Translations under genes and position numbers: made by a program
Part shown: one piece after another, positions 32,983-46,563 of the stretch
Layout: the number at the start of each line of letters is the position of its first letter
Numbering within the stretch: the stretch's first letter is position 1
Source: Candidatus Saccharimonadota bacterium
Lineage (GTDB): Bacteria > Patescibacteriota > Saccharimonadia > Saccharimonadales > Saccharimonadaceae
Direction: 5' to 3'
DNA: 46,625 nucleotides
Assembly (NCBI GenBank): GCA_013333795.2
Contig: JABCOE020000020.1
Coordinates: 1 to 46,625, forward strand
Notes under the pieces: model-generated
What the model was told of the DNA's origin: nothing
The model's database searches: none
The model's input: only the letters and a program-made list of their open reading frames with translations

Positions 32983-33378
32983 GGGGCTGATATAGCGTTC
33001 GACGTAGAGAATTTAACAGGTTGTTTTGCGTACCGACTTCTGACGTTATCAGAATTAATAGTTGCAAAATTTGCAAACAAAGCGAAGGCGTTTGTTTCAT
33101 CATTGATGCCACGACAGACAGCCTTTGCACTAGCTGCGTAATATTACTGGCAGCCGCATCCGCCTAGATTCTTGCTATAGGCTAGGTGTGTCATATCTAG
33201 CAAGATCGGTTAATTGATATTTCTGCTATATCATTAATTAAGATTTTAAGCAGATCGCTAGTTCGTATGTTTGTCTAGCTTTGAGCGGATAAGCGATTAT
33301 TTAACGAGTTAGACTATGTGCGTAGACAAACAACAGGTTACTCTGCGGACCCGGGGGCAGTACCCGGCAGCTCCCCCA
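32983..33378 (+). ncRNA. ssrA: tmRNA; tag ORF 33064-33141 (A)AKFANKAKAFVSSLMPRQTAFALAA*
   Basis: 5' GGGGCTGA..TTCGAC; 3' GGACCCGGG-GGCAGTA-CCCGG-CAGCTCC-C-CCA; ATAGTT|GCA resume context; ALAA end. Confidence 0.95.
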
Positions 33379-33391
33379 CATCGTTTGTTGT

Positions 33392-33412
33392 AGAGCCTTT
33401 CGAGCTCTTTTT
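33392..33412 (+). terminator. tmRNA terminator
   Basis: AGAGC-ctttcga-GCTCT-TTTT. Confidence 0.65.
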
Positions 33413-33424
33413 AATTTATGCGAT

Positions 33425-33525
33425 AAAAAAGAATGACTACCTGCGAGTAGTAGTCATTCTAATGGTTGTGGAGTTTTCTGAAGTGTTTATTTCTGGTTCC
33501 TGTATAATTTTTTTATTCAGGAACT
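33425..33525 (-). ncRNA. Candidate ~100-nt sRNA
   Basis: Minus-strand TTGACA(33560-33555)-17-TACTAT(33537-33532); 5' hairpin GTTCCTG/CAGGAAC; terminator AGAATGACTAC/GTAGTCATTCT plus U-tract. Confidence 0.6.
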
Positions 33526-33767
33526 ATCTCTATAGTAATGTGAAAATCTGCTTGTGTCAATGTTTTTTAGCAAGATTGCTAGGTAAAAAATACCACACTA
33601 GGTAACGGGATAATTGGAGTAAATAAATGTGTTTTATGCCTTGAAACGATACGCTAGATATGCCGATTTGTAATTCTATAAACATCGGTTAGCAACTAAC
33701 GACTGAATGTAGAGAGGGTTGTTTCTGGTGAATAGCTTAATAGAATTATCACCAGAAATTTTATCGT

Positions 33768-33999
33768 ATGGCGCAGGGAAATCTAACGTGTAAGGAATGC
33801 GGGGGCAAGGAAATCTGCACCTTAAGCTGTGGTGCTGGCAGCATAAATGTGGCTTCGGCAAAATAATTCTAGGCTTATCGCGCCCAAATGTTAGCGATTG
33901 GCTAAGGAGGCTCAGGCCAAGCTCTTCCGGCTTCACAGACAAGTTCTGAAAGGCGATACTGAAACTGGCGGTGACTCGTTTTTGACAGACGAAGCTTGA
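33768..33999 (+). pseudogene. Small Cys-rich ORF (MAQGNLTCKECGGKEICTLSCG..., 32 aa to 33866) with a probable decayed continuation
   Basis: CxxC-x5-C-x3-C; a shifted frame continues ..APKC*RLAKEAQAKLFRLHRQ..DEA* to 33999. Confidence 0.4.
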
Positions 34000-34082
34000 C
34001 GGTTAGAGATTGGTCATTGGCGCTGTTAGCCCAGTAGGTATTACGTATCTGTGCGTAAGTTGTATTGTGCCTATGAAAAAAA

Positions 34083-34247
34083 TTATGAATTAAGTTGTTG
34101 AATTTTTGTTTTTGCAGCTAAAGTATATTGTTGCTTGCATGCACATAACTCGACGTGCTGGGTTGTCTCTGATTCTGGTTCGTTGCTGGATTGTCTTTCT
34201 GTACATACGGTACATTGCAGGATAGATTATATAGTAGATTTTTTCAT
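34083..34247 (-). pseudogene. Decayed small CxxC...CxC protein
   Basis: MKKSTI*SILQCTVCTERQ..VELCACKQQYTLAAKTKIQQLNS*. Confidence 0.3.
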
Positions 34248-34683
34248 TGCGTGAATACCGACTTTTTATGATATTAATATAATTTTTGCCATGCTGTATG
34301 TATAGTTGTCGCATTTCGGATGTCATAAAATATACTGAAGATTTTGCTTAGTTTTATATAAACGTTAATTATATAAAGGATCTTTGAATACAAATAGTGT
34401 AATGAATTTTAATGAAAAATAGTTTGTGTAAACGTATCGCAGTTAGCTGTTTGTCATAAGTTAAATTCGCAGTGTAGAGCCTGATGTAGTGTTGTATTTT
34501 TTAAATTCGATATGATCTAAAGTCTATTTGTTGTAATAAATAATTAATAATAACTTGATAAAATAGCTATCATTGTAATTATTACACTGTAGATAAAAAC
34601 GCAACATTACAATAATAACAGAGGTACGTATAATAAAATAGTGAGCCGTAGTATAAATAACAATGTTTATATTACGATAGACG

Positions 34684-34712
34684 TTGACTTTTTATCATTG
34701 ATTTGCTATAGT
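34684..34712 (+). promoter_or_regulatory. sigma70 promoter with extended -10
   Basis: TTGACT-17-(TGc)TATAGT. Confidence 0.75.
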
Positions 34713-34718
34713 GTGAGT

Positions 34719-35060
34719 AAGCTTTTAGAAAAACAAAAAAAGCAAAACGATACCAACCAAATAAGCCTCCACAACAATAATCGACGGAAACTAGGTGGCG
34801 CCAAATAATTGTGGTTCCACCTAAGCTCCGCCTATTAAACAAAAAGGCGTTGAGCGCGCGATATGTGCGCGCATTACACACCTGATTAATCCTTGAGATT
34901 GCGATGTCAGTGACCATCAGGTGTGTGGTGCAGGTCCGCGCGATCGCAAGTCTTTTGCTCGCTAAGTGCGAGCGGTCAATCGGGCAAAAAGCAGTTGTTG
35001 CAGCGACCCTAATAGTTGTTTACAAAGGTGCTTCGTTATATTGCGACGCTGCTTTTGCCT
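34719..35060 (+). ncRNA. Candidate large structured ncRNA of unknown family
   Basis: Consecutive stems including a 16-bp helix 34871-34886/34916-34931 and a loop pseudoknot 34899-34905/34943-34949; G-U pairs favour the + strand; no + strand ORF. Confidence 0.65.
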
Positions 35061-35082
35061 CCTAGGTGTTATTATTTAAATC

Positions 35083-35463
35083 ATGTATAAACGCTTAATT
35101 GCATTTTTGATGTTTTTGGCGTTAGTGGTGTTGCTAGCGATAACGCAGACGACCGCGCCGTCTAAAGTTGGTCCGGCTATTGTAGTCGTTGTGTTTGTAT
35201 TAATATATATTTTTCTTACTTGCACATTGACTCTCTTGCTTCTATTTATAAACAAGATTGTGAGTAAGCATAAATCTGAGCCGTCTAAGCGGAGTGCTGA
35301 TGACATGTATACCTTAATGTATGGTGCAGTGTTAGCGTTGGCGCCGACTGTGATTGTTGCTGTGCAATCGATAGGACAGGTTCAAGCAGGTACGTATGTA
35401 TTAATTACGCTCTTTGTATTGTTGGCTCTTTTGTATGTTCGGCATCAGAAGCGTGTGAAGTGA
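35083..35463 (+). CDS. Hypothetical 4-TM membrane protein
   Basis: Four hydrophobic helices; TGtTATTAT 7 nt before the ATG. Confidence 0.8.
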   Translation: MYKRLIAFLMFLALVVLLAITQTTAPSKVGPAIVVVVFVLIYIFLTCTLTLLLLFINKIVSKHKSEPSKRSADDMYTLMYGAVLALAPTVIVAVQSIGQVQAGTYVLITLFVLLALLYVRHQKRVK

Positions 35464-35513
35464 GGACTGAGGCCTAGAAAAATTGTAAACGCATATGGTA
35501 TAATTTACTTAAT

Positions 35514-35945: not shown

Positions 35946-38900
35946 GTGTCTGGCGGCGGGATAGGCACTCTTGTAACATTGTTTGCAATAGCTTTGGTGA
36001 TTGGGCTAGGGTCTTTTGTTGTGTTTATGGTATATCGTAATACTCTTCGTGAGGCGAAGAACTATGAGCGCGGGCTTAAGATGGTGCCGATATTAATTCA
36101 TCTACCGCCAGCTAGCGATGATATTGTTAGCGACGGGCGTGATAAACGGGATCTGACGGAAGAAGTGTTGTCGCAAGCTCAGGTTATGTACAATATTATA
36201 TCCAGTACTGCCACTAAAGGTTTTAAGAGCAAGATTTATGGGCAGAGGCATTTGTCGTTTGAAATAGTGGCTCGCGATGGCTTGGTGTTCTATTATGCTG
36301 TTGTACCTACAGTGCTCACCGAGGTAGTTCGCCAGGCAAATGCAGCGGCCTACCCATCGGCTCGGCTAGAAGAGGTGTCGGAGCACACTGTTTTTAGCAA
36401 GGTCGGTAAGATGAGCGGTACGATTGGTGGCGAGTTTACTTTGAGGAAGAGCTTTGCTTATCCTATTGCAACATACATGGAATCTAAACGTGATGCATCG
36501 CGCGCATTGCTTAATGCTTTATCAGCAGCGACTCGCGAAGATGGTATAGGTATCCAAATATTAATTCGTCCAGCTAATGAGCGATGGGCCAAGTCGGCAG
36601 TTTCTGTCTCTGAAAAAATCATAGAAGACAAAGACAAAAAAAGACCGGACTTTCGGTGTTCTTCTCGCCGAGCGAAATTATGGAATCTCTATGGAAGCCG
36701 CCAGAGAGCGACGACAAAAAGCCGGAGGATAAAAAGCCGCTTAACTCTGTTGAACAGGCGACCGTTGATGCTATTCAAGAAAAAACCCGTTATCCGGGGT
36801 ACGAGGTACTGATACGGGCTGTTGTTTCGTCTAATACAGCAGCCCGTTCTCAGGTAATATTGAAAAATATTGTCGCAGCATTTGCATTATTTGACTCGCC
36901 GACGTTTAACGGATTTAAATTTACGTTAGCAAAAAACATTGAAGAACTAACTTCGTCTTATATTTTTCGTTTCTTCCCGCAGCAGGTTAATAAGAATATA
37001 TTAAATAGCGTAGAGCTGGCGACGATTTTTCATTTGCCGGATCAGAATAGTATTCCAAGCTCGCAAGTCAAGCGCCAGATGAGTAAGCAAGTCGATGGAC
37101 CGACGCAGGTGATGGAGACTGGTTTGCTGTTAGGATACAACGAATTTCGCGGTGTTAAGAAGCCGATTAGGCTCAGCGATAAAGACCGCCGGCGCCATAT
37201 ACATATTATTGGACAGACGGGTGTTGGTAAATCAGTTTTGCAGGAAAATCTAGCCTACCAAGATATGCTGGATGGGCGGGGTTTTGCCTTGGTTGATCCG
37301 CACGGGGACCTTGCGGAGCATTTGCTAGAAAAGGTGCCAAAGGAGCGCGTTGAAGACATTATTTATTTCAACCCAAGCGATATGGACAATCCGATTGGTC
37401 TGAATATGTTTGAGTTTGACCACCCAGACCAAAAAGACTTTTTGGTACAAGAGGCTATCGGTATGCTTTATGGTTTGTATGACCCAGGACATACTGGTAT
37501 CGTTGGTCCGCGGTTGGAGCATATATTCCGTAACTGCGCGCTGTTATTAATGAGCGATCCGGCGGGCGGTACTTTTGTCGATATACCGAAGCTCTTGGTT
37601 GATGATAGTTTCAGAAATAACAAGTTGAAATACGTTACCGACCAGCAGGTGTTAGATTTTTGGACAAAGGAGTTCCCGGCATCGCAGCGATCAAGCGAGG
37701 CAGGCGAGGTCATCAGCTGGGTTATTGCTAAATTTGGTCCGTTCATTAGCAATGATGCTATGCGTAATATTATTGGCCAGACAAAAAGCGGCTTTGATTT
37801 TCAAGACATCATGAATAATAACAAGATTTTGCTGGTGAACTTATCGAAAGGTAAATTAGGCGATCTTAACTCTAAATTGCTTGGTATTGTCTTTGTGATG
37901 AAGTTTCAGGCTGCGGCGATGGCGCGGGCCAAGATTCCAGAGGACGAGCGCAAAGATTTTACGCTGTATGTTGATGAGTTTCAGAACTTTGCGACTGATA
38001 GCTTCGAGACTATTTTGAGCGAAGCTCGCAAGTATCGATTGAGTTTGGTATTAGCTAACCAGTTCATGACGCAGTTGAAGGAAGAACTGCGCGAGGCTAT
38101 TCTCGGTAACGTTGGTACAACTATCACTGGCCGGATTGGTATAACCGACGCAGAAATTATGGTTAAGCGCTATACACCAGTGTTTGATGCAGAAGATTTG
38201 ACGAAATTGCCAAACTTTGAATCTGTCTGTGTCGCCCAGATTGAAGGTGTGCCGTCTGCGCCGTTTAGTATGGCATGGATTCCCCCGATGGGCCACCAAA
38301 ATGCTCAGTTGGGCGATGCTTTGCGCAGACTGTCGGCTGCAAAATACGGACATCCGCGGGCTCAAGTTGAGCGTGAGATAGCGGCGCGTACTAGCATGAA
38401 TCAATCTTCTGGAAATAATAAACAGTTGAAAAATACGGCTGGAGCCGCTGCTAACACTCCTAATAAAATAGCACCGAGTAGTAGTTCATCTTTTTTGGAT
38501 GAATGGTTAGCGAAACGCAAGCAAGTAACCGGTAGAAATAGCACTACGCCGCGTCCAGTATCTTCGCCGCTACCAGCTAATACTAAACCGCCGATGTCTT
38601 CGACTGGCAATGCAGTGGCCGCTGGACCCGCTCAATCTCAAGATTATACTGACGCTTATTCTCGTGCTTCTAGCAGTACCTTGCCAGCTCAGCCGCAGCA
38701 GCAACAGCTTCCGCAGCAGCCATCTCGAAATAATTCAATAGATTTGGCACAGTCACAGCTTGGTGCAGTACCGCTAGCAGTTACTGTGCCGCCGCAAGTT
38801 GGTGAGTCTCCTAATGTTAATTCTGCTACGCAGAGTGTCAATTTACCGACTGCAGATAATGGTCCGATTTCGGTGCCACAACAGCCTGCTAGTGATACTC

Positions 38901-38953
38901 TAAATATGCGCGACAGCGACAATAGCGGCGAAGTTTCGATAAAATTACGTTAG
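35946..38953 (+). CDS. VirD4/TraD/TrwB-like coupling ATPase (~1000 aa), frameshifted at A7 run 36636-36642
   Basis: N-terminal TM, HIHIIGQTGVGKS Walker A, VDPHGD, YVDEFQNF, SEARKYRL..ANQ. One extra A gives DKKKTGLSVFFSP and joins ORFs 35946 and 36656. Confidence 0.88.
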
Positions 38954-46433: not shown

Positions 46434-46563
46434 AGTGAACAGTCTGGTTGCGAGAGGTAAACTTACAAATTGCATCTTAGCAGTCAGGTTAAGTAATTTA
46501 ACAATTTGATTGTGCAATTATCATCGTCAGTCTATTTTTGAGTAGACGCTTCAAATGAAGCAT

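Follow-up and report, generated by a model that had tools for sequence, protein, structure and literature searches.

A predicted structured RNA with its own promoter, conserved in Saccharibacteria and traced to other Patescibacteria, as a candidate new class of noncoding RNA

The 46,625-nt stretch of DNA analysed here (the window) very probably encodes a stand-alone functional RNA, and by sequence comparison this RNA is a new class; it is rated so because it shows the defining features of no family against which it was tested. The gene sits between that for tmRNA (32983-33378) and a string of three genes, the ORFs of which specify a hydrophobic protein of 126 aa, a protein of 142 aa and a VirD4-like ATPase. 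The window also carries RNase P RNA and the start of a 16S rRNA. An initial annotation of this locus had described a large, pseudoknotted, stand-alone noncoding RNA. In the comparative analysis presented below its promoter, its independence from the next gene, its structured nature and its position outside Rfam are upheld by synteny, covariation and promoter and terminator signals, but the proposed pseudoknot is not conserved and the size turns out to be lineage-specific. Among homologues, conservation establishes the predicted boundaries of the gene and covariation its secondary structure, and the same comparisons establish its spread in the phylum and a separate promoter element for the gene downstream.

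The promoter, as first annotated, is of the sigma-70 type, with a -35 element TTGACT, a spacer of 17 nt and an extended -10 element TG.TATAGT (34684-34712, plus strand, as are all features given below for the window), and its position predicts a transcription start near 34719. Taken alone, this pattern is at the level of chance, since 9 sites were found where 5.7 are expected. A TTG-N17-TA...T promoter with the same 17-nt spacing is nevertheless present upstream of the RNA in 72 of 74 homologous loci, a count picked by a pattern-driven script, and distant members have one as well. The strand had initially been read from G-U pairs. The plus strand stands, but the argument from these pairs is weak by energy alone, because the minus strand folds almost as well (-120.7 kcal/mol, z = -4.8) as the plus strand (-123.4 kcal/mol, z = -5.8 against shuffles); it is the conserved promoter that fixes the strand. 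A coding function was considered and rejected: an 81-aa ORF on the minus strand is not conserved, the longest ATG frames in eight homologues have 14-67 aa, and no conserved ORF was found within the RNA in the homologues compared.

It might be supposed that the locus works as DNA, through hairpins in single-stranded DNA or as a transfer origin, or that it is an untranscribed relic. Its place ahead of a VirD4-like ATPase gene in the window's taxonomic order and the stable folding of both strands would suit such an element. The promoter and terminator signals are conserved, however, G-U pairs are retained in the covarying helices, the neighbours are different outside the window's order, and a relaxase is absent from most Patescibacteria, as far as the accessible part of PMC12102498 reports. 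We consider a DNA-level role, or an untranscribed relic, most improbable.

Full or partial DNA copies were found within the genus, and the comparison was extended from there; groups at the level of family, order, class and phylum are defined relative to the nearest genome. The syntenic interval in other Saccharibacteria, whose comparison had been proposed as a check on the annotation, was fetched via the 142-aa protein, which gave 79 loci from the best 80 of 252 matches. A profile built from 7 seeds matched the RNA in 74 of these, and in the five that it missed less than 700 nt was available upstream of the protein match. About one quarter of the 74 homologous loci are near-identical to the window; removal of near-duplicates left 56 long forms of 336-494 nt with a mean pairwise identity of 56%. 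A structure of 54 pairs was set by hand on 32 of these, the shorter ones (alignment A2), and in it 92.5% of the cells are paired. Two-sided changes occur in 36 of the 54 pairs, compared with 21 +/- 2 in shuffled and 11-20 in slid controls (the latter 30-47% paired), a comparison that does not model relatedness and in which the structure was derived from the same 32 sequences.

The RNA opens with a hairpin (34721-34743) in which a GCTTTT/AAAAGC stem, with compensatory changes among homologues, presents the A-rich loop AAAAACAAA. This loop is the most widely shared sequence of the family, and AAA(C/T)AAA falls within the first 45 nt of 51 of the 56 long forms. A short helix, TGAC/GTCA, is predicted to close the core (5' strand at 34782-34785, partner at 34975-34978); it is 95% paired but remains unproven because it has no two-sided change. 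Inside it, the three helices of the initial annotation are fully complementary (7/7, 4/4 + 5/5 and 16/16) and are contained in the covarying helices PA, PB and PC, respectively. PA (34792-34823) has compensatory changes in 9 of 12 pairs. PB (34825-34855), with a 2-nt bulge, is 88-93% paired and has two-sided changes in 3 of 8 pairs. The long arm PC (34856-34947), which includes the 16-bp helix, has compensatory changes in 20 of 23. Most homologues carry an insertion in PA that exposes a CGYACCTT loop (a loop of this type is found in 41 of the 56 long forms), and the window is without it. Similarly, the PC arm of most homologues contains an AGUA/GAA motif, which we take to be loop-E-like and which is degenerate in the window; AGTAC ... 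GGAA flanks a covarying helix in most long forms, AGTAC being present in 52 of 56. Next comes hairpin PD (GCTCGC/GCGAGC) together with a conserved GAGCGGTCA tract (34957-34979) that is common to the short forms described below and is found in 53 of 56 long forms. The last element is a 3' hairpin with an AU-rich apical loop (34983-35059), a divergent version of the family-wide AAGCGCY ... RGCGGAUUU hairpin.

The pseudoknot had been proposed between TTGCGAT in the loop of the 16-bp helix and ATCGCAA downstream of it. The seven-base complement does exist in the window, but among 33 testable sequences only the window reaches 7 pairs, the commonest value being 3. In the minimum-energy fold ATCGC at 34943-34947 is instead part of a nested helix with GCGAT at 34858-34862, which is 85% paired and shows compensatory changes in 3 of the 3 column pairs counted. 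The 3' strand of the pseudoknot thus has a conserved nested partner, and we have dropped the pseudoknot from the structure.

The size of the RNA, from about 130 to 480 nt, depends on the lineage. The 142-aa protein is present in 59 of 61 genomes of the order. A search among these returned 30 loci, two of which belong to the window's family; one more (L139, from an unpublished genome that counts only in the 59/61 tally) was left out, so that 27 were counted. In all 27, from other families of the Saccharimonadales, a short form of 130-240 nt occupies the same place. Its layout is a promoter, a 5' hairpin with a AAACAAAAA-type loop, a hairpin CGCTC/GAGCG, the tract GGTCAGTCA and a 3' hairpin AAGCGCY/RGCGGATTT with an AU-rich loop. 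In an alignment of 25 short and 8 long rows this structure is 87% paired, with two-sided changes in 13 of 20 pairs. Of the 27 short forms, 23 have a terminator-like hairpin (16) or a U-tail (11) behind them, a count made without a shuffle control and in which two of the hairpins lie, by eye, inside the next ORF.

In other orders and classes we find forms of 240-450 nt with differing interiors. The family is united by a 3' hairpin with a G/GAU loop and, in most forms, by the A-rich AAACAAAAA tract; TTAACAATT, a boxA-like word, and a loop resembling an anti-Shine-Dalgarno sequence are further features of many long forms. Three models were used to follow these features. R1, a model of sequence only, singles out the window's family (5/5), and its weak matches outside that family fell in coding regions. 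R2, which describes the short core, matches 42 of 121 genomes of the class and 13 of 151 of the phylum, and scores the window-type copy at E 3.5e-6. R3 describes the 3' hairpin (38 rows, 92% paired, two-sided changes in 10 of 14 pairs). It misses the window-type copy and matches 46 of the 121 class genomes and 24 of the 151 phylum genomes, mostly once per genome; there was no match in the other 127, nor in E. coli K-12, the only outgroup genome searched. The tallies for R2 and R3 include training genomes and false weak matches, with 27-44 candidates scored per genome; several weak matches (L260, L263 and L178-L180) were judged to be false. Distant matches that were inspected, among them matches to R3 from outside its training set, mostly lie about 230-460 nt downstream of a sigma-70 pattern and mostly terminate in a U-tract or terminator.

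In 10 of 16 loci from other classes a 6-nt hairpin loop is exactly complementary to a second loop, located 130-165 nt from the 3' end, and the pairing occurs in five sequence versions. By its pattern of sequence change this is a covarying kissing-loop pseudoknot, which does not occur in the window's form. A profile of the other-class RNAs covers the other-order RNA L214 from end to end (E 1e-10) and matches the 3' part of the short forms (best E 3e-6), and it scores the window-type long forms of the Saccharimonadaceae weakly (best E 0.02). The proposed homology of the distant forms rests on a chain of comparisons from the window to the short form and from there to the distant forms, with the 60-nt hairpin, the A-rich tract and synteny as its links. 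Two loci deserve separate mention. At L267 a second hairpin with a C-rich loop of the family type lies about 100 nt past the 3' hairpin of the RNA, which suggests that this copy is rearranged or duplicated. L058, in a record labelled Acidobacteriota, holds a Saccharibacteria locus with the RNA, and the label is likely to be wrong.

The initial annotation had also claimed that the next coding sequence has its own -10 element, and this is borne out. An extended -10, TG.TATTAT, lies at 35067-35075, ahead of a predicted leaderless mRNA, and in 29 of 31 long-form loci the start codon has a -10 hexamer 4-12 nt ahead of it (with the TG extension in 23); a word resembling a Shine-Dalgarno sequence precedes this gene in 1 of 31. 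The RNA is therefore not simply the leader of the next gene. Consider nonetheless the proposal that it works in cis, as leader or attenuator for the operon behind it (the 126-aa, 142-aa and VirD4-like genes here, pheST elsewhere), with its 3' hairpin serving as a conditional terminator. The RNA is on the same strand and ahead of the same gene in most Saccharimonadia, a U-tract follows the 3' hairpin in other classes, and an alternative long-range helix, TTGACGG/CCGYCAA, is 83.5% paired with some covariation and is favoured by RNAalifold. This helix has a central mismatch in 24 of the 32 sequences, however, and is possible as an alternative fold only. Besides the separate -10 element, attenuation is opposed by the second terminator-like hairpin that follows 16 of the 27 short forms, two of them within the next ORF by eye, and by the distant members, whose downstream genes are unrelated or convergent (the next ORF is convergent in L175, L176, L255, L271 and L277). 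We regard a leader function as improbable. As a separate observation, an extended -10 element a few bases before the start codon is also seen at 35497-35504, ahead of the 142-aa gene, and in many homologues, and these patterns suggest that leaderless mRNAs are widespread in these bacteria.

Is the RNA a known one? As the initial annotation had recognised no family in it, Rfam 15 was searched and gave no match in the window, either at the gathering score or at E up to 10; over the RNA in 71 related loci (14 + 20 + 17 + 20) only chance-level matches were obtained. An insertion-sequence end had been named as another way in which novelty could fail. Each genome has a single strong copy, at a fixed locus, and no multiple copies, terminal repeats or mobile context of the kind that mark insertion sequences and phages were seen; a search of 50,697 phage records, and of viral contigs with one pattern, yielded no match. 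A fragment of rRNA was also considered and set aside, the genomes having full-length 16S (5/5), 23S (4/5) and 5S (5/5) genes. In listings and abstracts we found no description of the RNA, which may carry another name in supplements or subscription papers; raiA alignments, a bioRxiv cluster database and the lists of motifs from surveys of 26 and 50 genomes are places where it might be hidden. The accessible parts of PMC11109978, PMC8632094, PMC10861870, PMC10633639 and bioRxiv 10.64898/2026.10.21.760802 contain no mention of such an RNA from Saccharibacteria.

Several known classes nevertheless need to be weighed individually. The slot of 6S RNA appears to be empty, as no match to the 6S model was obtained in any of 5 genomes, and the present RNA, or one like Ms1, could fill it by binding RNA polymerase. 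Like 6S and Ms1 it is present in a single copy with a strong promoter sequence, and several distant members precede a small ORF that, on reading its sequence, we take to be TraR/DksA-like. But it is built as a chain of hairpins or a multibranch core, and no form has the rod with paired ends and a central bubble that would mimic an open promoter. Three family profiles give no match on E. coli 6S RNA, and the longest word in common with it, 13 nt, is at the level of chance. The likeness was rejected on these grounds, and a 6S-like function seems to us quite unlikely.

A second possibility is that a known RNA has diverged beyond recognition: an SRP RNA after the loss of Ffh, the raiA motif, or a T-box leader of pheST. 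None of 151 phylum genomes yielded the RNA-binding domain of Ffh (controls 14/14), so that the SRP slot seems to be vacant and an RNA linking ribosomes to the membrane might occupy it; the RNA lies ahead of pheST in several lineages; and its loop-E-like arm recalls P8 of raiA, as described in the accessible part of PMC12968392. Yet neither the window nor the 71 loci have an Rfam match to any of these families at E up to 5-10, and the alignments show no end-pairing P1, no PK1 or PK2, no helix-8 tetraloop and no T-box sequence. The resemblance to SRP RNA (4.5S or the large bacterial form) does not extend to a helix-8 motif, the loop of the 3' hairpin being AU-rich and 15-25 nt long rather than a GNRA tetraloop. 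With raiA (RF03072) the RNA shares a single locus, a fixed core with optional stems and one E-loop, raiA acting in trans (accessible portions of PMC10861870 and PMC12968392). The E-loop in a peripheral stem is present in most long forms here, but it is a generic motif and is degenerate in the window. The ends form separate hairpins, there is no UUAGACGUAA linker, and raiA is reported from Bacillota and Actinomycetota. At E <= 1, a threshold that no control genome passed either, the raiA model had no match in any of 41 genomes from the order, and with the difference in topology this led us to reject the likeness. For the T-box, comparison with the T-box consensus revealed neither a conserved codon downstream of the loop-E-like motif nor a T-box word (alignment A1), and this candidate too was discarded. 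Altogether, a far-diverged known RNA is in our view very unlikely.

The word TTAACAATT, presumably boxA, provides a link of another kind. In 46 of the 56 long forms it occurs, within 1 mismatch, 30-60 nt downstream of the predicted start (2.5% in shuffles), and it is found in 8 of 9 leaders of 16S and 23S rRNA, with a variant of two changes in the ninth. The window's own 16S leader has it at 46496-46506, and in the window's copy of the RNA the corresponding slot (34748-34758) is decayed, its best match having 3 mismatches. None of 19 short forms has the word within 1 mismatch, and it is missing from the window's genes for tmRNA and RNase P RNA. A search for NusB succeeded in 5 of 5 genomes, and one for Rho in none of the 5. 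According to the accessible part of PMC13753749, boxA loads NusB:S10 on rRNA and CRISPR transcripts. The resemblance to these untranslated transcripts lies in the same TTAACAATT after a promoter in cells with NusB; the differences are that here it precedes an RNA of 0.35-0.5 kb in cells where Rho was not found, and that it is lost in the short forms and decayed in the window. The rRNA loci of five genomes (L110-L118) afforded some incidental observations. The 16S and 23S genes each have a promoter of their own and a leader with a boxA-like word; 16S is followed by a trailer complementary to its own leader and by a terminator-like hairpin; and 1.4-3.5 kb of other sequence separates 16S from 23S. 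Just past the 3' end of 16S, L110-L114 have a conserved trailer with a hairpin and then AGCTAGGTCG(G/A)TC, which by eye looks like hairpin PD and the GGTCAGTC tract. Neither this trailer nor the 23S leader gave a profile match, so this likeness was set aside, and the family profiles found nothing on the rRNA loci beyond promoter-level matches.

The gene next to the RNA (35083-35463) encodes a 126-aa orphan protein with four predicted membrane helices and a confidently predicted structure (pLDDT 93). It is a candidate partner. No Pfam family was found for it, 76 members giving only scattered weak matches. Foldseek returned no match to the model at E <= 0.001, and the best VIA Z of 9.6, to unrelated helical bundles, is under the level that the tool treats as meaningful. 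Relatives occur in 78 of 151 phylum genomes. It was found behind the RNA in 81 of 86 examined loci, most of them selected by synteny, and in 15 of the 26 other-order and 3 of the 16 other-class loci; of these 18 other-order and other-class pairs, 5 were in the profile, and one other-class case has E 3e-4. The pair occurs in two neighbourhoods, before the VirD4-like operon and before pheST. In the remaining 13 of the 16 other-class loci the RNA is unlinked from the gene, and R2 gave no match near other-class four-helix genes (22/22), and therefore the adjacency may be no more than gene order inherited near pheST. It was also observed (L221-L244) that in most other classes the four-helix gene is directly before pheS, the frames often overlapping or adjacent.

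In Southlakia epibionticum, the gene SEML1_0140 is listed in the supplement of PMC10633639, as far as it is accessible, as core and Patescibacteria-enriched, with a growth defect on disruption; the same source calls the two genes behind it essential and leaves the 778 nt ahead of it unannotated. Gene order points to SEML1_0140 as the counterpart of the four-helix gene. Its growth defect may be due to polar effects. According to the accessible part of PMC10633639, S. epibionticum is transformable and has the same gene order.

OLE RNA and OapA offer the closest analogy to such a pair: a large orphan bacterial RNA with its own promoter and an adjacent gene for a small integral membrane protein. 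OLE RNA is about 600 nt long, whereas the present RNA varies between 130 and 480 nt. It has no Rfam match to OLE in the window or related loci, its neighbour shows no likeness to OapA's family in Pfam scans, and RNA and protein gene are unlinked in most other-class loci. OLE is held at the membrane by OapA, as described in the accessible part of PMC3413148. By analogy the four-helix protein might be the partner of the RNA; of the partners that can be named it is the likeliest, but we would call the proposal doubtful.

With fixed modules at its ends and variable interiors, a strong promoter, a terminator and a single copy, the RNA follows the pattern of a housekeeping scaffold RNA. That the RNA is a scaffold for a protein is somewhat probable; the fuller reading, a scaffold that acts in trans, binds protein and may be tethered to the membrane through the four-helix protein, draws on analogy and is offered tentatively. 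A mechanism along these lines would begin with abundant RNA made from the strong sigma-70 promoter. In many long forms the boxA-like site would load NusB/S10, as on rRNA leaders, and this would aid co-transcriptional folding, because Rho was not found. The 5' A-rich loop and the 3' G/GAU hairpin, both fixed modules, would be docking sites, and the helices between them lineage-specific expansions. At the membrane the RNA would then be bound by the adjacent four-helix protein, much as OLE is by OapA. Finally, the A-rich tract and the anti-Shine-Dalgarno-like loop might engage mRNA starts or ribosomes at the membrane and so partly fill the role of SRP, seemingly absent from the phylum; this last step we hold to be quite unlikely. 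Since the window has no C-rich loop and a decayed boxA, and the short forms have no boxA, the NusB/S10 step and the ribosome step cannot be universal. The most far-reaching version, a phylum-specific housekeeping RNP in which an RNA made with Nus factors has the four-helix protein as its anchor and recruits ribosomes or mRNA starts to the membrane in place of the lost SRP, is speculative and has little likelihood.

The same features can be read without the membrane. The RNA could be soluble and act on translation initiation, its exposed C-rich loop pairing with Shine-Dalgarno sites or serving as a decoy for proteins that hold the 16S tail, and its A-rich tract imitating an A-rich leader; the membrane protein would then be merely a neighbour. 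A C-rich loop, TA(T)CCCCCTT or ACCTCCTT, is present in 23 of 25 other-order loci, in addition to the CGYACCTT-type loop of the 41 long forms. ACCTCCTT is identical to the organisms' own 16S tail (the anti-Shine-Dalgarno sequence), and the rRNAs tested contain a single perfect complement to CGCACCTT, located 25 nt from the 3' end of 16S, although a single 8-mer match in 4.7 kb of rRNA has a chance of ~7%. Moreover, the loop is missing in the window's copy and in most short forms, and only CCTT is common to the three loop types. Such a soluble role is, we think, unlikely.

Whatever its partner, the scaffold RNA favoured here would join a small company. Few classes of bacterial noncoding RNA are large, structured and phylum-wide, and those known (RNase P, tmRNA, SRP, 6S, OLE and raiA) serve central processes. 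Its persistence in symbiont genomes of 0.6-1.3 Mb, in which SRP protein, Rho and 6S were not detected, makes a basic role likely. One RNA family would span about 130 to 480 nt with swapped interiors, and would include members in which a transcript other than rRNA probably bears a boxA, in cells that seem to lack Rho.

Some features of the surrounding DNA may be recorded. From the tmRNA to the promoter of the RNA (33378-34684) there are about 1.3 kb of AT-rich sequence without convincing ORFs. Folding of the minus strand at 33560-33960 (z = -1.1) lent no support to a second structured RNA there. The window's tmRNA is found by Rfam (100.9 bits) and missed by ARAGORN, and its 3' end is CCCCA, not CCACCA. 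Lastly, the VirD4-like gene (35946-38953) is split in the window into two overlapping frames of 288 and 765 aa and is open for at least 998 codons in 14 of 14 close relatives; the split is a frameshift, probably due to an assembly error or a recent lesion.
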